Positions 3,089 to 33,388 of a DNA stretch of 39,359 bases are shown in pieces. Source of the DNA: a virus (lineage: Duplodnaviria; Heunggongvirae; Uroviricota; Caudoviricetes); the IMG/VR virus record IMGVR_UViG_2563366943_000021. The stretch is one strand, 5' to 3'. How positions within the stretch are numbered: position 1 is the stretch's first letter; each line of letters opens with the position of its first letter. The translations under genes and the position numbers were made by a program. The notes below the pieces were generated by a model. That model did not search any database and was not told where the DNA came from. It worked only from the letters and a program-made list of their open reading frames with translations.

Positions 3089-3368
3089 ACTTTCTCCTGT
3101 TTACTATCTATAAGCCAGTCAATTATTGATGACTAAACCCGCATAGTAAACCATATATGAATCATTATTGTTCCATATCATATATCTCAATAAAAGTACT
3201 AATGATTTTACAGAACGAGCCAGCAGAGTGGGGGCAGTTGTACAGGAACCATAGACTTAATTTTGTATTTAATAATGCTATGGTGTAATAAACCTGAACA
3301 TGTATTTAAAATACGTACTGATTCATGATAGAATTCAAAGATAACTTTTCACCAACTCCGTTTTTGAT

Positions 3369-3396
3369 ACCCGCAATATTTTGCGGGCTTTTTTTT
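3369..3396 (+). terminator. Plus-strand rho-independent terminator overlapping the tailspike stop codon
   Basis: Stem CCCGCAA / TTGCGGG, loop TATT, followed by 8 T on the plus strand; on the minus strand the hairpin is followed by A-rich sequence. Confidence 0.4.
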
Positions 3397-6300
3397 AACG
3401 TTCTTCCAGAGACTGAACCCGCTCTTTTATCTTATCCATTTCTCTGCGCTGCCATGCTGCCTCGATATAGAATAAGAGATCAGGTCTGACCCCCCATCTA
3501 GATCCTGCTGGCGTTATTTCAACGCGCTCAATGATGTCTTCTATTACCATCACTGGATTATCATCCTCATCAACAATGATGCTCCCGTCATTATCAGTCA
3601 GCGGCATTTCCCTTTGGCCAGTAATGACGTCATCATATACTGCGGGATAATCGTCATAGCAAAGAAAGGCATAGCGGCATGTTGTGCTTTCTTCTTCCAT
3701 GAGTCCGTGAGAAATAAGAACATCACGAAGTTGCTGCGCGATTACACCATGATGTATCCTCGCCCCTTCTTCCCCCTTTATAGCGACAGCGTTCAGCCAT
3801 TTATAAGCGATATACCTGACGTCACCCCAGGCATCCAGCAATGCTTCGTCAGGAGAGACCGGCTCTGTCTTTAATGTTCCGTCACTGGTAACCACAGGAT
3901 TGGAGCCAAGATAAACTGTCGAGAACCTGTTTCCCGGACCACCAAGAGCATTTACATTATCAAGATAAGGTTTAACATCTCCGTTCTCAAAAAGATGTTC
4001 GAGTGCGTTATATACCGCGCGACGTGGAGTACTGCTTCCGGAACCATGCAACGTTATCATTGCACCATCTGCTGAAGACGTTGTTTCACCGCCGCTAACG
4101 ATTAATCTCTGAGCGGTAACATCATCAGACGGTACTTTCTTCGCAATAATGGCGTAATTACCCTCAAGTTTGACTTCCGCGCGAACTTGTCCTGATGTAC
4201 CTGCATGGACAGTCAGTGACTGGACGGCAACATCATCTGTGAAATCAACGGGTACAGGAACCGTCCTCACGCCTGACGTCGACATAAAAGTAGGAAGCGT
4301 TCTGTTAGGAGTGGCTCCGTAGACAAAATCCCTTGAAACAAATTCTTCCTGTTTAATTTTCACCCTGAAACAATACAAATCAGCCGGGTGACCATCGTGA
4401 ACATAAGGATATTTTCTGTTGTTATCCCCTATGCTCCATGGGTTTAGAAAGTCTTCCCCACCGAAAATGTAGTACAGCCAGTTGTCTTTGATACAAACTG
4501 AACCAACACCAACCGCAGAGTTAACTATTCCGCCCTGATAAATCTGATCAGTAACATTAACCCACTCTACATTATCCAGACTCCACTCATTGACGTTAAC
4601 TCTGGTCATAAATGTTCTTGGATAATTTCCTGCATAACGGTTATCAGGTTCTCCTCCTTCCCACTCACCAAATGCGCGCTCACTGCCAAAAATAATCAGC
4701 TCATCGCCAACTTTGGCAAAAGGAAGGTTTGAGTGATGAACATTATTTGGGAAGCGAAGAGAATTCCATGATGTACCTAAATCAGAGCTTCTGTGCAATG
4801 AACTACCGGGTTGAGTACTTAATGTCCCCCTGGTCGTCAGATACAGAATGCCATCATAATATTTTACACATGGCTCAGATGCATTCGCCTCATATTCTAC
4901 AGGTATGCGTCTGCGAACAAAGCTACCAGGAGAACCGAAAGCATCAGAGAAATAGAGTATCCCAAGCTCGCGTGGACCAATATCACCATTATGGTAGCCA
5001 ACAGCAAAACTGTTATCGCTAATCGTCGCAAAACTGTGAATCTCAGTAACAGGAGTGCTTCCGTCAACAAAAGAAGGAATAGTTCCAAGACTGGTTTTTC
5101 TCCATGGTGACGAGTGAAATGATGTGCCAAAACTCCAGTATCTACCCTCGTTATTCTGATCCACATCCTGGGTATTTTGCGTCGTAACTGTAAAGGTATT
5201 TTTATCAATAACAGTAGTCACCGTCATATTCCCGGTAACACCTGTAACACCAGAGTTTGAGAAGTTGACAAAATCACCAGCAAATAATCCGTGATCAGTA
5301 ATGCGAATATAAGCGACTTGCTGATTTGCTGCTTTCGTTATACCACCATAAACGCGAAGGCTGCGACTCATTGGGCGATCCCACAACTCTGCAACCTGCA
5401 GTTTATTTCCTCTCACGGTCCGCGTCTCAATTACAGCAAAAAGGCGATTTCTGACAACCCCCATACTCATGCAGTGATAGTTAACTGTGGGATAGTTTTC
5501 ATGTAAATCTGTAAGCCATTCCGGCGTTGTCCAGGTCTTCCCGTCATCTCCTGAGCGAACCCATGCAACATGGAGGTTATTTACACCATGGCGGTCTCCA
5601 GCCATAAAAGGCGCATAGATGACATTGTCATATACAAACGTTTTATCCTGCGTCCAGGCGTTGTACCACGGTGTATCTGTAATTTTAAATAACTCTCCCT
5701 GGATAAAATCTTCAGAAGCATAAAAAAGAGGCTGGCCCGGTATTCTCTCAAATAAAAAACGAGCATTTTTAAATCGACTGACATCCGGAAGAGTTGATAC
5801 TTTAAAAGTAAGCCCTAATCCGTCAATTTTATAACCTGGAGATGAGGCTTCAAGGCACGCGCTTATTGCAGTGGAATCGTCATTTATACCATCACCAACA
5901 GCTCCAAAATCTTTGGGGCTAATAGCATCACGCATTTTATCCTGGAACGTTCGGTACACAGCCCCAGAACCATACTGAATAAACCAACCAAAACCACCAA
6001 CAACTCCGGCGATTGCAGCATCGACATAATTACGCATTGAGCGATTATTTACAGCGTCCTGCTCAAATGATGGATCTGCAAGGTTAGAAATTTTGTTTTG
6101 CTTTGCATCGTAATATTTTGCAAGCAAAGATGGTTTCATCAATGCACGTCTGAACCACCCAAAACATTGCTGGATCAGCATCGTCAGGTAGTCAAAGGCA
6201 TCTTCATGCACTTCGGGGAAAAATTTTCCCTGATTGCGAAGGTCTGTGTCCTGCACTACATCAAGCACACGATCTATCGTAATTCGCCATCCAGTAGCAA

Positions 6301-6514
6301 GCGGAGACGGAAGAACCACAGAACCGCCACTATAAGTGCCCGCCCCAGTTACCGTATAACCGGTATCCAGGACCAATTCTGTTACGTTCCCGTTCAGGTC
6401 AGACACCTGAACAACCAGGTCTGATTTTCTGAAAATTCGAAAAGTATACGGAAACGATGTCGTAACGCCGTTACCGGTGTATTCGTTGTGGTCAACTTCG
6501 GTTGAGACCGTCAT
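3395..6514 (-). CDS. Tailspike: N-terminal particle-binding domain, Asp-box sialidase-like beta-propeller, C-terminal intramolecular chaperone domain
   Basis: 1039 aa; two Asp-boxes SGDDGKTW (5531-5554) and SSDLGTSW (4766-4789); C-terminal about 150 aa resembles the auto-cleaving chaperone domain of endosialidases; N-terminus resembles epsilon15-type tailspike anchors (recalled). Confidence 0.8.
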   Translation of the reverse strand: MTVSTEVDHNEYTGNGVTTSFPYTFRIFRKSDLVVQVSDLNGNVTELVLDTGYTVTGAGTYSGGSVVLPSPLATGWRITIDRVLDVVQDTDLRNQGKFFPEVHEDAFDYLTMLIQQCFGWFRRALMKPSLLAKYYDAKQNKISNLADPSFEQDAVNNRSMRNYVDAAIAGVVGGFGWFIQYGSGAVYRTFQDKMRDAISPKDFGAVGDGINDDSTAISACLEASSPGYKIDGLGLTFKVSTLPDVSRFKNARFLFERIPGQPLFYASEDFIQGELFKITDTPWYNAWTQDKTFVYDNVIYAPFMAGDRHGVNNLHVAWVRSGDDGKTWTTPEWLTDLHENYPTVNYHCMSMGVVRNRLFAVIETRTVRGNKLQVAELWDRPMSRSLRVYGGITKAANQQVAYIRITDHGLFAGDFVNFSNSGVTGVTGNMTVTTVIDKNTFTVTTQNTQDVDQNNEGRYWSFGTSFHSSPWRKTSLGTIPSFVDGSTPVTEIHSFATISDNSFAVGYHNGDIGPRELGILYFSDAFGSPGSFVRRRIPVEYEANASEPCVKYYDGILYLTTRGTLSTQPGSSLHRSSDLGTSWNSLRFPNNVHHSNLPFAKVGDELIIFGSERAFGEWEGGEPDNRYAGNYPRTFMTRVNVNEWSLDNVEWVNVTDQIYQGGIVNSAVGVGSVCIKDNWLYYIFGGEDFLNPWSIGDNNRKYPYVHDGHPADLYCFRVKIKQEEFVSRDFVYGATPNRTLPTFMSTSGVRTVPVPVDFTDDVAVQSLTVHAGTSGQVRAEVKLEGNYAIIAKKVPSDDVTAQRLIVSGGETTSSADGAMITLHGSGSSTPRRAVYNALEHLFENGDVKPYLDNVNALGGPGNRFSTVYLGSNPVVTSDGTLKTEPVSPDEALLDAWGDVRYIAYKWLNAVAIKGEEGARIHHGVIAQQLRDVLISHGLMEEESTTCRYAFLCYDDYPAVYDDVITGQREMPLTDNDGSIIVDEDDNPVMVIEDIIERVEITPAGSRWGVRPDLLFYIEAAWQRREMDKIKERVQSLEER

Positions 6515-6618: not shown

Positions 6619-6633
6619 TTACCTTTCGGGTAA
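6619..6633. promoter_or_regulatory. Operator site TTACC-TTTCG-GGTAA
   Basis: Perfect 5+5 inverted repeat with 5-bp spacer; intergenic, upstream of LexA box and small antirepressor-domain gene. Confidence 0.6.
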
Positions 6634-7013: not shown

Positions 7014-7103
7014 ATTTACATCGCACTCCTCTTGTGCCATAGTAATCGGGCACTGGCAAAATCCAGTGCCGGGATTGGCGTCCCGAGTTACTAAGTGGCG
7101 CAT

Positions 7104-7127
7104 ACCACGCCAGACGTGGTTTTTTTA
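7104..7127 (+). terminator. Rho-independent terminator or attenuator in the ant leader
   Basis: Stem ACCACG / CGTGGT, loop CCAGA, followed by 7 T; about 100 nt downstream of the promoter and 155 nt upstream of ant. Confidence 0.45.
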
Positions 7128-7282
7128 TGCGTTAAGCACAGCTATATCCGAATTATGGTGGGCTGGGCAGGGGTCCGAAAGGACGCCGGTACCACTTAGG
7201 CCGGTACGCCAACCTTGTCCAGTTCACCACCAGTAATTGGCGTTGCGGTGGTGATTAAAATCACTAAGTGGAGATAACCACC

Positions 7283-23403: not shown

Positions 23404-23696
23404 TCCTGTTCACTGGCCTCTTTGGCCATCTTCAAATACTGTTCAGGGCAATGCGCCATAACGCGCTGAAACAGTTCCAGCGCCAGATTGCGTTGCCCCT
23501 CATTAAATGCCATTGCCATAGCATCCATCGGAGAGATAGCGGAAAACACCCGGCCTTTCTCCAGCACCGACCAGACAACGCGACGCCCCTGTTCACTGCT
23601 CATGACAAAGCGAATGTCATCAATTTCACGCTGTGCCATGTCACGTTGCTTACGGGCGTTTTCTTCTTTCAGTTGATCGTCTTCGTAATCTGTCAT
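23400..23696 (-). CDS. Hypothetical protein (98 aa) between portal and scaffold
   Basis: ATGA-type overlaps on both sides. Confidence 0.5.
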   Translation of the reverse strand: MTDYEDDQLKEENARKQRDMAQREIDDIRFVMSSEQGRRVVWSVLEKGRVFSAISPMDAMAMAFNEGQRNLALELFQRVMAHCPEQYLKMAKEASEQE

Positions 23697-25372
23697 TGTG
23701 ATTGCCCACCCTGACCACTAACTGCATTCGCCATAGCTGACAAAACACTCGGATCCGAAGTTTTAGCTTCGCTTAGCGTCTTGGCACCCTGTGCCGCCGC
23801 CATCCCCATCGCCATCATTTGTTGCTGCTGTTGTTGCTGTGCCCGTTGCTGGCGAGCCTGCTCAACCTGTTCCTGCGGAACAATGACGGTTGGAGACACT
23901 CCGGACATATCAGCGAATGCATCGATCGCCTGATCAACGTTGAGTTTGTCGAGAGCTTCTGGTTTCGCTTGCGCAAGTTGACCAATGAAGTTAACCGTGG
24001 ACGCCAGACTGGACAGGCCGATAGACTTCTGCGCCTGAGCCATGACGGAAATGTATTCGACCTTCAGGGGCATACCTTCCATCACGTCTGGCGGTGGCGG
24101 CAGCATGTTTTTACGCACCATCATCGAGAAAGCGCGGTCAATGAGAGGATTAAGACATTCGTCGTTCAGACGCTCCAGAACCGGCCCCAACATCAGAAGT
24201 TTTTCTTCTTTCATTTCGATCACCGCTTCAACAGGCATCGAGCGGGTATTGATGTTCTGCAACATCATGAACAGATCGACAAAGTAGGCGCTGTTAATGA
24301 TTTGACGGGTGTCCTGAATGTCTGCCACCAAATCTGCTGTACTGGGGTTAACCAGATAAGCAGGCCTGAAACCATCCTGACCAGTAATCTGATCGATATA
24401 CGTGATGTCGCCAGGAAGAAGGGAGGCACGCTGATTCTTGAGGGAAGTCGGAGCAACCATCGGCGGATTGGTGGCTTTATCAATCAACTGCGACTTGCGC
24501 TTCTGGAGAAGCTGCAATGCCTTAACAGGTCCAAGCGCCAGCATACCCGGGCATGATGATCCATAAACATCTTCGCCGTTAACTTCCCAGCGCGGAGCCA
24601 TAATTGGAAACTCATCGAATCCGGACTCACGCAACAACTTGTCGTTATCGCCACCAACCTCGTAATAAACCGATTTGAATGGCTTGTTCTTGCTATCCAG
24701 CTTCGATGTATCGCGGTCAATGTTCGGGTAAACCGAATGCATCACTTCAATCCACTTCTCGTAGGTGCCGCTTTCCCACATGCTTTTTACGGATTCGCTG
24801 ACGTTATTTAGCCCGAACTCCTGAACAAGCTGACGAACAGTCATAGAGAACTTGCGAAAACAGGTGTCCACACTGCCACGAGGTGAGTTAGCCAGGTAGT
24901 AACTGCCTATCGGGAATGGCATTGTGCGAATGATGTCCTCGTCATCCTCCAGCACCGCCATTGCACCAGTGCTGTATGTGCCGAGGCTTCCGTATAACTG
25001 CGGAAGAGACTGGTAGAGATTCGACTTATTGAACATATCGTTCATGCGGTTCTGCACCGCCTCAAGCCACAACTTAACAGGGCCATAATCCATCATTTCA
25101 GGATCTGGCGTAGCCAGGCGAAACCACGGACGCGCGGGGCTTGTGATGCCTGACATCATGCCGCTGGCGAGAGTGCGCGCCGCCATAGTCCCGGTCGAAT
25201 CAATAATGCGTGTATTGCGTCGATCGTTACGGTTGACCTCAGAAGTCAGAAAGCGGGAACCACGCGGGTTGATGTAATCACTCAACTCGCGCCAGTGCGG
25301 CTCGAACGACTGACGCTCGCTTTCAAGTTGTGCGAACTGTTTGTTCAATCGCTCTTTAGTTGTTTCCGCCAT
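23693..25372 (-). CDS. Portal (head-to-tail connector) protein, T7 gp8-like
   Basis: 559 aa; Gln-rich C-terminus QQQQQQMMAMGMAAAQGA resembles T7 connector C-terminus (recalled); RBS GGAG; follows terminase region. Confidence 0.8.
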   Translation of the reverse strand: MAETTKERLNKQFAQLESERQSFEPHWRELSDYINPRGSRFLTSEVNRNDRRNTRIIDSTGTMAARTLASGMMSGITSPARPWFRLATPDPEMMDYGPVKLWLEAVQNRMNDMFNKSNLYQSLPQLYGSLGTYSTGAMAVLEDDEDIIRTMPFPIGSYYLANSPRGSVDTCFRKFSMTVRQLVQEFGLNNVSESVKSMWESGTYEKWIEVMHSVYPNIDRDTSKLDSKNKPFKSVYYEVGGDNDKLLRESGFDEFPIMAPRWEVNGEDVYGSSCPGMLALGPVKALQLLQKRKSQLIDKATNPPMVAPTSLKNQRASLLPGDITYIDQITGQDGFRPAYLVNPSTADLVADIQDTRQIINSAYFVDLFMMLQNINTRSMPVEAVIEMKEEKLLMLGPVLERLNDECLNPLIDRAFSMMVRKNMLPPPPDVMEGMPLKVEYISVMAQAQKSIGLSSLASTVNFIGQLAQAKPEALDKLNVDQAIDAFADMSGVSPTVIVPQEQVEQARQQRAQQQQQQQMMAMGMAAAQGAKTLSEAKTSDPSVLSAMANAVSGQGGQSQ

Positions 25373-25386
25373 TTCAATGACTCCGG

Positions 25387-25593
25387 TTACTGACCAAGCA
25401 GCGTTTTACCGCTGGTATTAGCGGTTGATGTGTCGCCCTGAGAACCGGTAAGCAGCGTAGAACTACGACCAGCAGCAGCGCGACGGCGACGAGTTTCTTC
25501 GTCGCGGGCATCAACAACGGCGGCATCCTGCTCCTGTGGTGCTGCCTGAACTTCTGGTGTTGCAGGCACTGATGGTGAGCTACCCATGCACAT
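25387..25593 (-). CDS. Hypothetical protein (68 aa) upstream of portal
   Basis: RBS GGAG; translation-initiation region GGAGTCATTGATATG nearly identical to that of portal. Confidence 0.4.
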   Translation of the reverse strand: MCMGSSPSVPATPEVQAAPQEQDAAVVDARDEETRRRRAAAGRSSTLLTGSQGDTSTANTSGKTLLGQ

Positions 25594-25683
25594 ATCAATG
25601 ACTCCGTACGCAATTAAATTATTACCAATTTAACCACATATGATTTATTTATCGTAGGTAGTTGACATTTAACGCACAAATTA

Positions 25684-25698
25684 TTACCTTTCAGGTAA
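25684..25698. promoter_or_regulatory. Operator site TTACC-TTTCA-GGTAA, with TTGACA hexamer 17 bp upstream
   Basis: Perfect inverted repeat at the upstream edge of the plus-strand tRNA moron. Confidence 0.55.
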
Positions 25699-26020
25699 CC
25701 AAAGAGTTCATTCCGGTTACTAACCTGACTGGCTTGTCGTTAAATTGAACAGGTGGAGTGAGCTTTTATTTTGAGCAGTACGGCGTATGGCACATGCGCC
25801 GATAGCGGTCTGGATACGTTTAAGGGGCACCCTCCTTTGCTCGGGCAAACGAACCAGGTAGCCGGAATGTGCAAGTCGAGCGGTTTTATTCCGCGCACGG
25901 GGATTCACCATCCCGGCGATTCGGTGTGACGCCTCGGAAGAGACGAGGGTACAACGATGAGAGCATTTATGGAGCCGCGACAAAGTGTGGCGCCTTAACA
26001 GGCTAAGTGCTCTCAGCGTT

Positions 26021-26097
26021 GTGGCATTAGCTCAGCTGGACAGAGCAACCGCCTTCTAAGCGGTTGGTCGCAGGTTCGAATCCTGCATGCCACGCCA
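26021..26097 (+). tRNA. tRNA-Arg (anticodon UCU)
   Basis: Hand-folded cloverleaf: 7-bp acceptor stem GTGGCAT/ATGCCAC, D-arm GCTC..GAGC, anticodon stem ACCGC/GCGGT with loop CTTCTAA (anticodon TCT), T-arm GCAGGTTCGAATCCTGC, discriminator G, encoded CCA. Confidence 0.8.
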
Positions 26098-26140
26098 GAA
26101 TCACGCCTAAGGACCGTGATGCCAGAAGTTCCAGGTGCTT

Positions 26141-26183
26141 GGCGGTGATGGTTTCCCTTGAAGAACTATCACCGCCCTTTTTA
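26141..26183 (+). terminator. Rho-independent terminator downstream of tRNA
   Basis: Stem GGCGGTGAT / ATCACCGCC with 17-nt loop, followed by CTTTTTAC. Confidence 0.5.
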
Positions 26184-26260
26184 CAGCAGGACGCCATTGC
26201 GATGACTTCATGCTGTAAACCAGTACAGCCACGGAAGGCATAACTCATTGCTTCCAGTTC

Positions 26261-26284
26261 GCCCGGGTCGCCGGGCATTTTTTT
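26261..26284 (+). terminator. Second rho-independent terminator, 12 nt upstream of the 139-aa ORF
   Basis: Stem GCCCGG / CCGGGC followed by 7 T. Confidence 0.5.
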
Positions 26285-26295
26285 AAGGTGAGATC

Positions 26296-26715
26296 ATGAA
26301 AACAATTGATATGTTGGCTAAGTATCTAAATGAATGGCCATTAAAATATTCTCGTATCGTTCAGGCTGAAGACTGCGTTTTTTATGGCGTTTTTGCTGGT
26401 AATGAAATGCATTACGAAGTAATTCAGAGTGAGGGACTGGCCGGGTTAACTCTTAGCGAAGACCATGGTACTAGCGTTACGTTCCATGACTGGATAACAG
26501 CACAACGTTCTGAAATGGAAAAAGGCGATGTGTTTGATATTTCTCGCGCTGTTTACGCTAAAGCAAAAAGTGATAATGATTACATGAGCGAACACTTATA
26601 CAACATGAAGTTACAATGCCTGCATGCGGCGCTTATTCAGAATGGGCACTTCGATAAAACAAGTGCCATCAATATTGCGGAAGCCATCAACGCTGGATTT
26701 GATGCCATTAAGTAA
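26296..26715 (+). CDS. Hypothetical cytoplasmic protein (139 aa), moron antisense to the late operon
   Basis: RBS AAGGTGAG; no TM or signal peptide; no family recognised. Confidence 0.55.
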   Translation: MKTIDMLAKYLNEWPLKYSRIVQAEDCVFYGVFAGNEMHYEVIQSEGLAGLTLSEDHGTSVTFHDWITAQRSEMEKGDVFDISRAVYAKAKSDNDYMSEHLYNMKLQCLHAALIQNGHFDKTSAINIAEAINAGFDAIK

Positions 26716-26719
26716 CACC

Positions 26720-26731
26720 GTGACATGTCAC
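26720..26731. repeat. 12-bp perfect palindrome GTGACATGTCAC (copy 2 of 3)
   Basis: Directly after the 139-aa ORF stop and before a terminator. Confidence 0.7.
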
Positions 26732-26735
26732 AAAC

Positions 26736-26762
26736 AGCCAGCCGATGAGCTGGCTTTGTTTT
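26736..26762 (+). terminator. Rho-independent terminator closing the plus-strand moron
   Basis: Stem AGCCAGC / GCTGGCT, loop CGATGA, then TTGTTTT. Confidence 0.6.
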
Positions 26763-26805
26763 ATCCTCATCAGAGGATATCAACGACATTATCCCCACTA
26801 GCGGA

Positions 26806-28281
26806 TTAAGCATAGGGATCGTAATCTGTGATGGCCTTGCCTTGCTGGTTCTGCTGTCCTGGTATATTTATGCGTTTCGAGACCGGGAAAGCAAACGTCA
26901 GCAATAGCGCATCGCCTTTCCCCGGCGAACGCCCAAGTCGCTCTTTGATATCTTCCTTCGGTTCGATAACGATTTTACCGTCCACGCGAACTTTGTACTC
27001 TGCCGTCGACAGGTCGTCCGCTGTTTCCCGGTCATCCAGCATGCCGCCGAGCCTCAGCCATGTCTTGCATGAGTTGAACATCTCCCCACGCTTGTTGAGC
27101 ATCTGCGGGTCAGTAGACGCGCCACCGAATGGAACAAGTTGCCATGTGCGCCCCCAGCCGTCACCGATTGACTTCAGCCCGGTTCCATAACCGAAGTCGA
27201 TGAACACCGCGTCAGCCTGATACTGGTCTTCAAAGTCAGCGATACGCTTCGCCATAATCAGATCGTCGGTGGTCTTGTTACCAGTCCATAGCACCTTACT
27301 GTGCAGCCCCTGCCGCAGGTATATCACAGCGTCATCAACGCCGGAGTATGCCGGGTCAACGCCGATTATCACCGGAGCATGTGCCACCTGCGCAGCGGTT
27401 ACCACCCGTTTCATTGCCTCGTCAGTAAGACCGGTAGGGATAAACTGCAATTCAGATGCATCAGGGAATATGCCGCGCACACGTATTTTAACGAAGTCGC
27501 TGTCTTCCCCGTAGTCATCAACCCATTTCTGCAACTGCTGTTTGTTGGTGCCTTCCACCGTCCGGCTGTCAATCTGCGCAGTTTTCCAGCGGTGTTTATA
27601 TTTGCGGAAACATTCGCGGAAACGTCCGGTATTACGCGTCGGGTTTCCGAACGCCACCCAGATAATCTCAGTGTCTTCGTCCGTTAGCGCACCCTCGGCA
27701 ACTTCCCACACCAGATCCGCAATGTTCGACGCTTCATCGAATACCACGATGATGCGTTTACGCTCGTTGTGTAGTCCGGCGAATGCCTCAGTGTTGTGCT
27801 CAGACCAGGGGATTGCGTCAGCTCGCCACCGCTTGTCGTGCCCAGGGTCATTGCTGTACATCGCGGTAGCGGTACAGGTAAACCAGTCTTTCGTGATAGC
27901 AAGGTTTGACCACTTGATAATTTCCGGCCAGGTCTTCGTTCGTAGCTGGTTGTCGGTGTTGGCGGTCACCACGACCTTACAATCCTCGCAAGTGGACATG
28001 CCCCAGTTGATCAGCATTGAGATGAATGCGGATTTACCAATACCGTGACCAGAAGCACGTGCCAGCATAAGCGGCTGATATCGCGTCTCTGGATTCTGCA
28101 GGTGATCACGTATCTCTCGGAACGCATCGGCCTGCCACTGACGTGGACCGGTGGCATGTGCCAGTTCAGTACCCTCTTCCCCCCACGGGAACGCATAGAG
28201 GGCATAGCCAAGCGGATCGTGAGTGAACCCTGCAATATCCTCGATCAACTGCTCTTCAGGAGATAACGCTGCATCTGTCAC
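26806..28281 (-). CDS. Terminase large subunit
   Basis: 491 aa; Walker-A-like GHGIGKS near N-terminus and nuclease-like C-terminal half; adjacent to small subunit gene with 4-nt overlap. Confidence 0.85.
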   Translation of the reverse strand: MTDAALSPEEQLIEDIAGFTHDPLGYALYAFPWGEEGTELAHATGPRQWQADAFREIRDHLQNPETRYQPLMLARASGHGIGKSAFISMLINWGMSTCEDCKVVVTANTDNQLRTKTWPEIIKWSNLAITKDWFTCTATAMYSNDPGHDKRWRADAIPWSEHNTEAFAGLHNERKRIIVVFDEASNIADLVWEVAEGALTDEDTEIIWVAFGNPTRNTGRFRECFRKYKHRWKTAQIDSRTVEGTNKQQLQKWVDDYGEDSDFVKIRVRGIFPDASELQFIPTGLTDEAMKRVVTAAQVAHAPVIIGVDPAYSGVDDAVIYLRQGLHSKVLWTGNKTTDDLIMAKRIADFEDQYQADAVFIDFGYGTGLKSIGDGWGRTWQLVPFGGASTDPQMLNKRGEMFNSCKTWLRLGGMLDDRETADDLSTAEYKVRVDGKIVIEPKEDIKERLGRSPGKGDALLLTFAFPVSKRINIPGQQNQQGKAITDYDPYA

Positions 28282-31101: not shown

Positions 31102-31884
31102 TTACTTGATAAATCCTGCCGCCTTTCCCCGCCTGTATTCCTCCATCAGCCACTGCGCCGGTGTTATTCCCCCAAGGGTGGCGGCGTTAGGCATGCACCC
31201 GAAACTTCGCCCTGGTGGATGGTAAACGTCTCTCCCTGTGTCCGGAGGTGTACTCATGGGTTCTGGCTTTGCCTGTATGCTGATCACCGGATCGGGTATC
31301 TGCTGTCCGGAAGCCACCTTTTTCGCCCAATCATCGAGCAGCCTGCGCGCGTGTTTCTCAACCTCAATCTCGCTAAGCTGGCGCTGATACATTGCACGGC
31401 GGGTATCACATACGACCCAGTACATAACCGGATGTCGCCACGGGAATCTTTCGGGACCACCAGGATATAAACTTTTTTCCTTGCTGTACCGGTGAAACTC
31501 CGCCATCACATCGTCAATGGTGACGCCAAGAACCATCTTGCTGTCTTTGCACCACTTGATGAATTGCCCAGGCGACGGCCAGAACGGAGATTCACTGGCG
31601 CGGGCGTGGCGCATACCAGCGTTAACCTGTTCCATTGTTGTGATCCCATTCTCCAGAAACGCAAGCATCCATTGTTTTCGAAATTCGTTTAGCTTTCCTT
31701 GCTCGCTGATAGCAGCGATGCTGCCTGGAAATGCAGCCTGTAACTGGACAAACATTTCGTTGAAAATTCTTGCAACCTGCTCCTTCTTTGCCCTTTCATC
31801 GTCAGCAGAAGCAACCGCCGTCGAGTGGTCATGCCCACCACGAAAGCGATCGTACTCATTAAGAAGTTCTGGAGTTGATTTCAT
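31102..31884 (-). CDS. Replication protein, lambda P-like helicase loader
   Basis: WMLAFLENGITTMEQVNAGMRHARASESPFWPSPGQFIKWC closely matches lambda P (recalled); start set at internal ATG 31884. Confidence 0.8.
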   Translation of the reverse strand: MKSTPELLNEYDRFRGGHDHSTAVASADDERAKKEQVARIFNEMFVQLQAAFPGSIAAISEQGKLNEFRKQWMLAFLENGITTMEQVNAGMRHARASESPFWPSPGQFIKWCKDSKMVLGVTIDDVMAEFHRYSKEKSLYPGGPERFPWRHPVMYWVVCDTRRAMYQRQLSEIEVEKHARRLLDDWAKKVASGQQIPDPVISIQAKPEPMSTPPDTGRDVYHPPGRSFGCMPNAATLGGITPAQWLMEEYRRGKAAGFIK

Positions 31885-32692
31885 CCCACACCTCATCTAT
31901 CCAGTCAGTGTTATGCCAGTCAAGGCTCTTTCTGACTTCACCTGATTTCTGTCTACAGAACTGGATGCGCCTTGCCAGCTTCTGCTCCCACTGTGCCTGA
32001 TGGTATGCCTTACCCTCAGCCATCCAGTAAATTCTGAACTCTGCAAGTTCCTGTGCCGTTGGCAGACTGTCCAGGTAGATTCCCTGCAATGAGCTTTTCC
32101 GAAGAAAGTCATCTGATGGCTGCCATTGTTCATGCATGACAAATTTACCTAATTGCCCTGGCCCACCAGGAGGAACAAAGTTATTCATCACGGCGTTGTT
32201 TGCGCCGGGGTCATGAGGAACAGAATCCCCGGTTTTTGTCCTGCTCTCCCTCTCTTGGTTAAATGACTGGTTATATGACTGGTTCTGGATCCCGTTTTTG
32301 GGATCATTCAACATCCCGTTTTTGGGATCATTCAACATCCCGTTTTTGGGTATATTCCCGTTTTCGGTAACATTACCGTTTTCGGGTTCATTGCCCCCCT
32401 CCCGGTTGCCTTTAATGTTCCCGTTTTTGGTTATATTAAGAGAGAAAACCCGCACTCTTTTTGTCGCTCCCTTTCTCTCTCCGGTATCTGAAATAAGCCC
32501 CATTTTCATGAGCGATATAAGCCCGGCCTGCACGGTTTTTTTATTCAGGCAAGTGTCTTTAACGAGGCGTTCTATGCTGGGGTAGCAGAGGTTATATTCA
32601 TCGGCTCTGTCAGCCATCGAGAGCAGTATGAGCTTTAATGATGAGCTACCTGGATCTGTCTCCCAGGCCCAATCTGTTGCATGTCTGCTCAT
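31859..32692 (-). CDS. Replication initiator, lambda O-like, with N-terminal wHTH and internal repeat region
   Basis: N-terminal wHTH-like segment; central NG-rich tandem repeats that coincide with DNA iterons; immediately upstream of P-like gene. Confidence 0.65.
   Translation of the reverse strand: MSRHATDWAWETDPGSSSLKLILLSMADRADEYNLCYPSIERLVKDTCLNKKTVQAGLISLMKMGLISDTGERKGATKRVRVFSLNITKNGNIKGNREGGNEPENGNVTENGNIPKNGMLNDPKNGMLNDPKNGIQNQSYNQSFNQERESRTKTGDSVPHDPGANNAVMNNFVPPGGPGQLGKFVMHEQWQPSDDFLRKSSLQGIYLDSLPTAQELAEFRIYWMAEGKAYHQAQWEQKLARRIQFCRQKSGEVRKSLDWHNTDWIDEVWDEINSRTS
32289..32432. repeat. Iteron array (putative origin of replication) inside the initiator gene
   Basis: CCCGTTTTTGGG three times at 24-bp period (32291, 32315, 32339) plus degenerate copies near 32357, 32376 and 32420. 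Confidence 0.6.
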
Positions 32693-32988: not shown

Positions 32989-33003
32989 TTACCTTTGAGG
33001 TAC
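32989..33003. promoter_or_regulatory. Operator site TTACC-TTTGA-GGTAC (9 of 10 half-site bases)
   Basis: Between cro-like terminator and the next minus-strand gene. Confidence 0.5.
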
Positions 33004-33017
33004 GAATAGATATGAAA

Positions 33018-33036
33018 AGACCGCCGGGTGGCGGTC
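33018..33036 (-). terminator. Rho-independent terminator after cro-like gene
   Basis: Stem GACCGCC / GGCGGTC, loop GGGT; followed by TTTTCAT on the minus strand. Confidence 0.5.
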
Positions 33037-33058
33037 TACAGAGGGTTGTAGCTGGATA

Positions 33059-33289
33059 TCATGAGTAGAAGAAGTATGCCAGTTCTGCTTTTGAGCGCAG
33101 CCATTGTCTTGTTTTACAGGCTTTAAAAAGCCCATTCATCAATACCTTACCTGGCATTTTGCGCTTACCTGTTAAGTGAGTCTGGATATAGTGACTCGTC
33201 GTTCCGGCTTCCTGTGCGAAGGCTTCACGCTCATCCGGAGTAAGTGCAAGCCAGTGCTTTTTGAAATCGAAATGTCCGTTATCGCTCAT
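33059..33289 (-). CDS. Cro-like small HTH DNA-binding protein
   Basis: 76 aa; divergent from repressor gene across the triple-operator region; HTH-like segment AGTTSHYIQTHLTGKRKMP. Confidence 0.5.
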   Translation of the reverse strand: MSDNGHFDFKKHWLALTPDEREAFAQEAGTTSHYIQTHLTGKRKMPGKVLMNGLFKACKTRQWLRSKAELAYFFYS

Positions 33290-33321
33290 AGCTATTGCCT
33301 GATATTTATTTCAGATAATAA

Positions 33322-33350
33322 ATATTCACCCATAAGGTAACAAAAATCAA
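33322..33350 (-). promoter_or_regulatory. Putative cro-side promoter (-35 TTGATT, 17 bp, -10 GAATAT) overlapping operator O1
   Basis: Read on reverse complement. Confidence 0.4.
33326..33340. promoter_or_regulatory. Immunity operator O1 TCACC-CATAA-GGTAA (9 of 10)
   Basis: First of three sites in the divergent intergenic region. Confidence 0.55.
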
Positions 33351-33356
33351 GGATAG

Positions 33357-33371
33357 TTACCTATGAGGTGC
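33357..33371. promoter_or_regulatory. Immunity operator O2 TTACC-TATGA-GGTGC (8 of 10)
   Basis: Degenerate site, 31 bp from O1 and 17 bp from O3 centre to centre. Confidence 0.45.
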
Positions 33372-33373
33372 AT

Positions 33374-33388
33374 TTACCTGTTGGGTAA
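33374..33388. promoter_or_regulatory. Immunity operator O3 TTACC-TGTTG-GGTAA
   Basis: Perfect inverted repeat nearest the repressor gene. Confidence 0.6.

Follow-up and report, generated by a model that had tools for sequence, protein, structure and literature searches.

A conserved structured RNA at the head of a putative repressor-controlled RNA operon in a Uetakevirus-type phage

The put RNAs of phage HK022 act in cis as factor-independent suppressors of transcription termination, and mutations in the zinc-binding domain of beta' block this activity. GOLLD and ROOL, which are large, structured RNAs of phages and prophages, associate with tRNA genes. Each put RNA is a non-coding RNA (ncRNA) of about 70 nucleotides (nt) with two stem-loops, lies just downstream of a lambdoid PL promoter and ahead of terminators, and occurs twice per genome, as putL and putR (PMC9378689). 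The small RNA (sRNA) DicF is encoded in the dicBF operon of prophage Qin in Escherichia coli K-12, an early operon under the cI-type repressor DicA, and is excised from the polycistronic dicBF RNA: the 5' end is made by RNase III in a form of 190 nt and by RNase E in a form of 53 nt (PMC10448788). Here we describe a plus-strand unit, centred on positions 25662-26183, of a tailed phage (Caudoviricetes; IMG/VR record IMGVR_UViG_2563366943_000021) that invites comparison with each of these systems. The window is the whole 39,359-nt stretch of DNA that was analysed; the region containing the unit is 90-98% identical to phiV10- and epsilon15-type temperate podophages (genus Uetakevirus).

The leader of this unit is a widespread RNA with strong covariation and without a match to any described family. 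A preliminary description of the unit had noted some 320 nt without a convincing open reading frame (ORF) ahead of a tRNA gene, and had suggested either a structured ncRNA or a long tRNA precursor. No convincing ORF exists in 25699-26020, and covariation and conservation uphold the first suggestion and not that of a mere tRNA precursor. The structured RNA at 25780-26021 consists of a 171-nt core, with five helices and a pseudoknot, followed by the 70-nt helix P6. The parts of the core, whose extent was set by a covariance model and by pair counts, are as follows.

25780-25950, plus strand: structured-RNA core
25781-25801, plus strand: helix P1, a 9-bp hairpin with a GCA loop
25810-25813 with 25854-25857, plus strand: base of helix P2, the hairpin itself being variable
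25857-25875, plus strand: invariant 19-mer GGTAGCCGGAATGTGCAAG
25861-25863 with 25915-25917, plus strand: GCC/GGC closing pairs
25900-25903 with 25911-25914, plus strand: helix P4
25906-25909 with 25923-25926, plus strand: pseudoknot between the P4 loop (CACC) and a downstream GGUG
25932-25936 with 25944-25948, plus strand: helix P5, with the invariant loop GAAGAGA

The fold was assessed on an alignment of 37 copies, all less than 93% identical (alignment A1), in which 29 pairs in 6 helices were counted. Invariant blocks are interspersed with variable hairpins in this alignment, and the core is 150-177 nt long across copies. Standard pairs fill 96.0% of the cells, compared with 26.9-48.1% when the partners are slid by one to three columns. 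Compensatory changes on both sides occur in 12 pairs (79 cells), and none of 500 shuffles reached the observed values. One pair of the pseudoknot is C-G in 32 sequences and A-U in five, and is never unpaired.

It is barely credible that the region is instead a spacer that is rich in hairpins by chance, or a minus-strand coding sequence of the kind drawn in some records (mEp460 gp37 and phiV10 p04 among them). Hypothetical proteins are annotated there in several records, and 28 of the 37 cores have a stop-free minus-strand frame; against this, neither the frame nor the extent of the annotated ORFs is the same from record to record, the substitutions are compensatory for RNA helices, and the plus strand folds better than the minus strand (z = -3.5 versus -1.8). 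Core lengths are spread evenly modulo 3 (14/10/13), with no preference for multiples of three, and the substitutions lack 3-periodicity. On these lengths, and since variable columns show no third-position excess, the core was ruled out as a coding sequence. Hypothetical proteins are drawn over the core, P6 or the tRNA, on either strand, in loci L002 (2943-3311), L001 (3434-3685), L013 (2011-2253) and L006 (2211-2372); these are probably mis-annotations.

A covariance model of the core, R1, has 156 positions, covers the invariant 19-mer, P1, the base of P2, P4 and P5, leaves out the pseudoknot and includes the window sequence in its seed alignment. It was run on sequences fetched by exact pattern or by BLAST. 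The window holds one copy only, 25780-25950 (model positions 1-156, 140.7 bits, E 3e-37), a match by construction as the sequence is a seed member; copies outside the seed (for example L146, L007, L014 and L141) score 149-159 bits, and R1 is full-length in all true loci. None of the 4227 models of Rfam 15 matched 25700-26020 at gathering thresholds, and none was credible at E values up to 10 with permissive filters. A full-text search of the searchable library for 15-mers of the invariant motif returned nothing, and in topic searches the element was nowhere described.

In lambda-like carriers the RNA, as put does (PMC9378689), lies just downstream of a PL-type promoter and ahead of terminators. 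By description it differs from put in having a core of 150-177 nt plus P6, a pseudoknot and one copy per genome and, unlike put, it is also found beside tRNAs and outside PL leaders. The placement behind an early promoter and ahead of terminators is seen in the lambda-like carriers and in the window, and not in phage P1. Like GOLLD and ROOL, the RNA is phage-borne, complex in fold, covarying and found beside tRNA genes; it differs from them in lacking an Rfam match, in its smaller size (about 240 nt), in its near restriction to Enterobacterales and in its apparent control by prophage repressors.

The leader is not confined to this phage and proved to be a module found also in lambda-like and P1-like phages. 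A BLAST search with 25700-26020 returned 86 phage records, extending beyond the Uetakeviruses to lambda-like phages (mEp460, cdtI, 2H10, Stx2c- and Stx2a-converting phages and 1720a-02) and to P1, P7, D6, SJ46, RCS47, Klebsiella and Enterobacter phages and one phage labelled Stenotrophomonas. In IMG/VR at least 120 contigs contain the invariant 19-mer GGTAGCCGGAATGTGCAAG. Among species-representative genomes, the 18-mer GTAGCCGGAATGTGCAAG gave 27 loci, of which 23 are full-length copies and four chance matches. All 23 are from Enterobacterales except one 1.7-kb contig binned as Bacillota, which we suspect to be mis-binned. The 18-mer matches in L140, L144 and L150, from gut metagenome-assembled genomes of Bacteroidales and Oscillospiraceae, have flanks that are alike and no RNA, and were set aside as chance matches; they look like a sequence common to these contigs that is probably protein-coding. 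About a fifth of complete E. coli genomes (1064 of 5426, by megablast) carry the element. No annotated feature underlies it among the E. coli matches listed, and no RNA annotation was found at the element in the records inspected, a few of which have hypothetical proteins over it.

The genomic settings of the element point to early transcription. In the lambda-like carriers, at about 70 loci, the element follows a cI-type repressor gene by 150-280 nt on the same strand. Ahead of it in mEp460 lie the terminator of cI, a pair of operators of the OL type (TTGCnnnnnnnGCAA, a sequence found at OR as well) and a PL-like promoter, so that it is the first thing that PL would transcribe. In phage P1 trnI and ban flank the core (R1 134.9 bits), within the ban operon that C1 controls, while in Uetakeviruses the element stands behind an operator-controlled promoter of its own. 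The lambda-like PL leader, the P1 ban operon and the window would thus be three independent cases of an early, repressor-controlled context. A co-oriented tRNA gene adjoins the element at 45 of 133 loci, namely tRNA-Arg(UCU) immediately 3' in Uetakeviruses and tRNA-Ile2 immediately 5' in P1-like elements.

The control region of the window fits this pattern. The features of the unit as far as the first terminator are given below.

25662-25667 and 25685-25690, plus strand: early promoter, -35 TTGACA and -10 TACCTT with a 17-nt spacer, read from the sequence
25684-25698, plus strand: perfect palindromic operator TTACCTTTCAGGTAA, overlapping the -10 hexamer
25699-25779, plus strand: variable 5' spacer from the presumed transcription start to the structured RNA, delimited by alignment
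25952-26021, plus strand: P6, a long helix CAACGAUGAGAGCA ... UGCUCUCAGCGUUG with a variable tip, whose last G is position +1 of the tRNA
26021-26097, plus strand: tRNA-Arg(UCU), found by ARAGORN and by Rfam (RF00005, 71.7 bits against a gathering score of 29)
26100-26120, plus strand: hairpin AUCACG-CCUAAGGAC-CGUGAU with a Shine-Dalgarno-like UAAGGA loop, directly after the tRNA
26121-26183, plus strand: DicF-type module, comprising a single strand (..GUUCCAGGUGCUU), the hairpin GGCGGUGAUGG...CUAUCACCGCC at 26141-26176 and a U-tract, found by terminator scan

The operator and TTGACA element noted in the preliminary description can indeed be read at 25662-25698. A consensus promoter scan called no promoter in 25300-27000, the TTGACA promoter included, and the promoter is our reading of the sequence; transcription would start at about 25698. 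The operator motif TTACCTnnnAGGTAA, allowing up to two mismatches, has 16 sites in the window against 0.85 expected, a number reached in none of 100 shuffles. Sites include 6619, 6999, 8067, 30988, 31050, five at 32989-33388, 34086 and 34148, among others; the five lie between divergent genes at 32.99-33.39 kb that we take as the putative immunity region. The scattered copies suggest a dispersed repressor regulon like that of P1, with the RNA operon as one member. Six Uetakeviruses, from E. coli, Salmonella, Enterobacter and Klebsiella hosts, have a nearly invariant control region in alignment, and the epsilon15 record has a repressor site annotated at the homologous place. In SPN1S the 5' spacer measures about 35 nt, and it reaches up to about 250 nt in epsilon15 and PAT1. 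Because of the position of the operator, the unit would belong to the prophage repressor regulon, silent in the lysogen and switched on early. The earlier reading of the unit as a moron, in the sense of a unit expressed in lysogens, is not supported, since the promoter is overlapped by the motif whose sites cluster in the putative immunity region and should be kept repressed in the prophage; it should fire early after infection or induction.

The core is an autonomous, exchangeable module, because it stands alone in phage P1, is absent from Qin and is replaced in phiNP and SfIV. Phage P1 has the core alone, without P6, slot 3 (the position downstream of P6) or the DicF-type module, and it follows a tRNA where the window core precedes one; unlike in the window, the modules of the ban operon are spread across 2.5 kb, with protein genes between them. 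A stretch of P1 near the start of the ban operon (L003 205-305) overlaps an annotated 'dicF-like region'; judged by eye, it is similar to the slot-3 domain of type 2 found in Qin and in lambda-like carriers (GCGCGGCGGTAAG.ATGGC...CAGGTTGACCAT.CGCCT.AGTG). In Qin the protein genes ydfABC occupy the core position. phiNP keeps the P6, slot-3 and DicF parts of the leader with a different head of about 380 nt in place of the core, and SfIV has the same alternative head followed by an inserted coding stretch, with only the slot-3 and DicF-type parts kept. This head (phiNP, L163 1310-1680; SfIV, L162 970-1100) begins GAACAGGCAGGACGCCCACGAAGTAGCCGCC, is unmatched and may be a second undescribed RNA module; the whole non-coding leader of phiNP is about 1 kb long.

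In epsilon15 only helix P1 and half of P2 are left (L004 2050-2112), fused to the terminator loop, while both terminators and the downstream ORF are intact. TTCCCTTGATGCT occurs both in the P2 loop and in the loop of the DicF-type terminator hairpin, and the deletion arose by recombination between these copies. A YCCUUG motif is common to these two loops, whose longest common substring averages 5.8 nt within a locus, 5.1 nt between loci and 4.5 nt in shuffled sequences, a difference that is suggestive only.

P6 is a helix of 14-16 bp (CAAC..GAGAGCA / UGCUCUC..GUUG) with a tip of very variable length. Two register classes made pair counting in a fixed register unusable, and folding of cognate and non-cognate strands was used in its place. 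About 32 genuine distinct strand pairs exist, including the compensated forms GAUGGCU/AGUCAUC and GAGAGUA/UACUCUC, and cognate strands fold at -19.2 kcal/mol versus -14.1 kcal/mol for non-cognate strands. Slot 3 starts at a conserved GUUG|UGG downstream of P6 and is filled by tRNA-Arg in the window. Where it has no tRNA it is a domain of 70-290 nt closed by a GUUGUGG/CCACAAC helix; a perfect closing helix of at least 7 bp is present in 58 of 70 distinct tRNA-less versions, with the 3' strand 71-286 nt downstream, compared with 6 of 97 shuffled sequences. The slot-3 domains of lambda-like carriers were considered as tRNAs and rejected, being called by neither ARAGORN nor Rfam, with a T-arm-like hairpin in some only. 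A 135-nt insertion with a T-arm-like hairpin CTGGTTCAATTCCAG is present in the P6 tip of L014 (SPN1S), L008 and L009; it is probably a tRNA fragment, and the P6/slot-3 region, judged from such inserts, is probably a recombination hotspot with tRNA genes.

The GUUG with which P6 ends (26017-26021) can pair with the upstream CAAC or, in tRNA-less versions, with a downstream CAAC, the two pairings being mutually exclusive; the homologous site in L002 is 3238-3250 with 3366-3375. Such alternative pairing could form a switch, and this bears on the idea that the RNA senses a ligand in the manner of a riboswitch, cleaves itself or is otherwise catalytic. The conserved junctions, the pseudoknot, the variable peripheral hairpins P2 and P3 and the occurrence as an autonomous module in several genomic settings would all suit such an RNA. 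We nevertheless consider it improbable: there is no consistent expression platform, since what comes next differs between phages (a tRNA, P6 or a leader peptide); Rfam searches relaxed to E = 10 bring up neither a riboswitch nor a ribozyme; and a cleavage site is not inferable from the sequence.

The first terminator links the unit to the dicF locus. The preliminary description counted 26141-26183 as the first of three terminators. A hairpin is there (26141-26176), and it is more than a terminator, being homologous in sequence and position to the DicF hairpin and terminator of Qin. Weak Rfam matches to DicF (20.5 bits) and RprA in phiNP led us to the K-12 dicF locus, and in a direct alignment Qin 2170-2445 aligns with the 3' strand of P6, the slot-3 position and the terminal hairpin and terminator. 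The annotated 53-nt dicF of K-12 aligns with window 26121-26183, sharing TTGGCGGT...CCGCCCTTTTTA and the upstream ...GTTGTGG. Homologues of the terminal hairpin (GGCGGU...ACCGCC, then CUUUUUACA) with covarying stems occur at 91 of 135 loci, and those of the AUCACG-CCUAAGGAC-CGUGAU hairpin at 40 of 135, tRNA-less copies included. Other Rfam searches at E values up to 10, with the lambda-like and Klebsiella slot-3 domains and the phiNP leader, gave only sub-threshold DicF, RprA and RyhB-like terminator matches. Qin differs from the window in lacking the structured core (best R1 score 3.1 bits with filters off), with ydfABC in its place, and in the content of slot 3, which is a structured domain of 100 nt in Qin and tRNA-Arg in the window. 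The 3' strand of the Qin P6 contains the position 190 nt before the 3' end of dicF. Because the start of the 190-nt DicF form should fall there, P6 is, by analogy, a candidate RNase III processing helix.

These relationships raise the possibility that the structured RNA is a scaffold for processing or stability, a 5' domain that shields the tRNA and the DicF-like sRNA from 5'-end-dependent decay or positions RNase III or RNase P. The element is always upstream of P6 where P6 is present, is linked to tRNAs and lies at or near the 5' end of the predicted transcript. A simple hairpin would suffice for this purpose, however, and the 19 invariant junction nucleotides, the pseudoknot and the GAAGAGA loop imply a specific fold or partner; moreover, the P1 core has no P6 or DicF and lies downstream of its tRNA, and Qin makes DicF without the core. 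We regard a scaffold as distinctly unlikely.

The explanation that we consider best, and rate as evenly balanced between right and wrong, is that 25662-26183 is a repressor-controlled early operon that makes only RNA, whose transcript is cut into stable RNAs, and that the structured RNA acts in trans. From the sigma-70 promoter overlapped by the operator, a single RNA of some 485 nt would be transcribed (about 25698 to 26183), containing in order the 241-nt structured RNA (core and P6), tRNA-Arg(UCU), the small hairpin and the DicF-type sRNA module, whose hairpin serves as the first terminator. Three host enzymes would process it: RNase P at 26020/26021, RNase III inside P6, and RNase E ahead of the DicF-like module. 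The structured RNA, tRNA-Arg and the DicF-like sRNA would thereby be released as separate products. The tRNA would supply AGA decoding, and the structured RNA would itself be the gene product, acting in trans on a host component at the onset of the lytic cycle while being an accessory that is dispensable for phage viability. We favor a trans-acting accessory RNA because phages exchange the ORF downstream of the RNA and yet retain the RNA itself, because it shares operons with other stable RNAs, because the cassette moves between genomic positions, and because epsilon15 has lost the RNA and is still a phage with the downstream ORF intact. With the downstream ORF exchanged and tRNAs adjoining on either side, the RNA seems to behave like a gene and not like a regulator of its neighbour.

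The strongest alternative is a leader that controls elongation in cis, its nascent fold, alone as in HK022 put or with host Nus factors, giving read-through of the terminators that follow. Such read-through would serve the early-left genes of lambda-like phages and, here, the promoterless ORF of 139 amino acids (aa) downstream (ORF139). The leaders of L093 and SfIV contain a separate hairpin and an rrn-type boxA, GCTCTTTAACAA, which suggests that a conventional Nus-type site does the antitermination. GCTCTTTAACAA, which matches the E. coli rrn boxA, stands behind a hairpin AAAAAAGCGCCC..GGACGC in SfIV (L162 1040-1085) and in L093, there just downstream of the core, and the two together look like a Nus-type antitermination site. 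Position is what recommends a cis-acting leader: the element lies 30-80 nt downstream of early promoters, as put RNAs likewise lie just downstream of PL (PMC9378689), and at least one terminator-like hairpin separates it from the first ORF in 77 of 122 distinct contexts, usually 35-70 nt ahead of that ORF. mEp460 has no N-like gene between PL and the terminators, and no consensus promoter was found for ORF139. Yet the RNA stays conserved where a different gene, or none, lies downstream, a tRNA directly follows it in the window, and the P1 element is 2.4 kb from the promoter with no terminator evident in the 100 nt or so before ban. epsilon15, without the RNA, keeps both terminators and an intact downstream ORF. 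In size and structure the RNA does not resemble the 70-nt, two-stem put RNA. Moreover, put works without a dedicated protein factor (PMC9378689), but the collection to which the mEp phages belong is Nus-dependent (PMC11893012). On balance we judge cis control of elongation to be unlikely.

Several points weigh against the trans-acting RNA operon that we prefer. Its trans action is argued from the logic of genomic context, and the transcription start, processing sites and product stability are predictions. The lambda-like layout, in which the element is followed by one or two terminators and the first early-left gene, would also suit control of elongation in cis, and the invariant junctions and pseudoknot would equally suit a ligand sensor or ribozyme. 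epsilon15 persists with a deletion of almost the whole RNA, and the structured RNA and the tRNA are therefore dispensable for at least that phage. Unlike DicF, the DicF-like RNA of the window is sub-threshold in Rfam, where the DicF model (RF00039) gives 13.1 bits on 26130-26177 (E 1.9) against a gathering score of 48, and it has no detectable complementarity to ftsZ: in a crude duplex test against the ftsZ translation start (duplexfold of ViennaRNA, compared with shuffles) it gave z = -0.09, while K-12 DicF gave z = -1.6. A second site for the complement of the DicF-like loop was sought in the window, and none was found.

We propose tentatively, as slightly less likely than not, that 25780-26021 founds an unrecognised class of phage ncRNA, transcribed first from repressor-controlled early promoters and with a job that is biochemically new for phages. 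Candidates for this job would be catalysis, or the binding and redirecting of a host machine, for instance the ribosome, RNA polymerase, a ribonuclease or a defence protein. A complex, covarying RNA has been overlooked in such well-studied systems as P1, Shiga-toxin prophages and E. coli genomes, at what would be a prime regulatory position of temperate phages, among the first bases transcribed once the repressor falls. It accounts for the 'non-coding' gaps of 0.3-1 kb, or the dubious ORFs, beside cI, ban and terL in hundreds of phage records. If the RNA manipulates a host machine or a defence, an RNA effector would be added to the early programme of temperate phages, including Stx-converting ones. 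With its strong structural constraints and model-organism hosts, it is a tractable new RNA. The classical dicF locus, too, can be recast: it becomes the last part of a bigger RNA operon built from interchangeable modules, in which a head RNA is followed by an RNase III helix, then by a tRNA or a domain of similar size, and lastly by an sRNA that also serves as terminator.

There is nothing unusual about the tRNA gene or the general layout of the unit, both of which relatives already have annotated; the leader, by contrast, is out of the ordinary. ARAGORN and Rfam agree with the preliminary call of tRNA-Arg(UCU), which has the anticodon tct at position 35 and an encoded 3' CCA (end ...GCCACGCCA). 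The same gene is annotated in related Uetakevirus records (O157 typing phages 9 and 10, phiv142-3, SPN9TCW and ST512). It differs from free-standing accessory tRNA genes with their own promoter in being an exchangeable insert in a conserved slot of an RNA operon. In E. coli AGA and AGG account for roughly 2 and 1 per 1000 codons, respectively; the window has 7.6 AGA and 5.1 AGG per 1000. The enrichment of AGA is thus seen overall and does not extend to the late genes in general, the codons being concentrated in a few genes: 17 AGA lie in 3395-6514 and eight in 31859-32692, both on the minus strand, while portal, terL and capsid-region genes have none or one each. AGA supplementation by the tRNA is plausible from this distribution, though not as a general late-gene effect.

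The remaining features of the unit and its neighbours are as follows.

26184-26284 (within), plus strand: segment between the first two terminators, with an inverted repeat ACAGCA...UGCUGU and a hairpin GGAAGG...CUUCC
26261-26284, plus strand: second terminator, GCCCGGGUCGCCGGGC and a U-run, found by terminator scan
26296-26715, plus strand: ORF139, 139 aa, phrog_4846 (E 1.4e-89)
26720-26731, plus strand: palindrome GTGACATGTCAC, read from the sequence
26720-26765, plus strand: third terminator element, with a hairpin at 26736-26755 and a T-rich tail, found by terminator scan
23693-25372, minus strand: portal gene
25387-25593, minus strand: gene for a 68-aa gp3 homologue
26806-28281, minus strand: terL, flanking the unit

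The gene coordinates confirm the insertion of a plus-strand unit amid minus-strand genes, with terL on one side and the gp3 homologue and portal on the other. Its three plus-strand terminators were recovered by the terminator scan as hairpins at 26141-26176, 26261-26276 and 26736-26755. On the minus strand the scan found no terminator-like hairpin in 25300-27000, so that late transcription is not obviously blocked. The segment between the first two terminators is conserved in Klebsiella, Salmonella and epsilon15 relatives. Window 26184-26284 has the shape of an Hfq-type sRNA (stem-loop, short single strand, terminator) and could be a further small RNA.

ORF139 starts 12 nt past the T-run of the second terminator, as first described, and the consensus promoter scan agreed that it has no evident promoter. 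It may depend on read-through of the first two terminators or on a non-consensus promoter in 26184-26260. Its 103 homologues come, among the source names given, from Enterobacterales genera only. ORF139 belongs to a genuine phage protein family, phrog_4846, but matched nothing in Pfam, PADLOC or PDB, and its AlphaFold2 model (mean pLDDT 65, pTM 0.35) is too low in quality to support a fold search. The gene slot varies between phages, being occupied by a Phage_gp49_66 gene in phiV10 and a DUF2829 gene in ST512.

A search of the whole window with Rfam at gathering thresholds returned only tRNA, isrK and C4. At 7050-7234 on the plus strand an isrK-like RNA (67.2 bits, gathering score 50) directly precedes a C4 antisense RNA (66.0 bits, gathering score 45). 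This pair is an antisense immunity module of the P1/P7 type in a Uetakevirus, and the operator sites at 6619 and 6999 lie just upstream of it.

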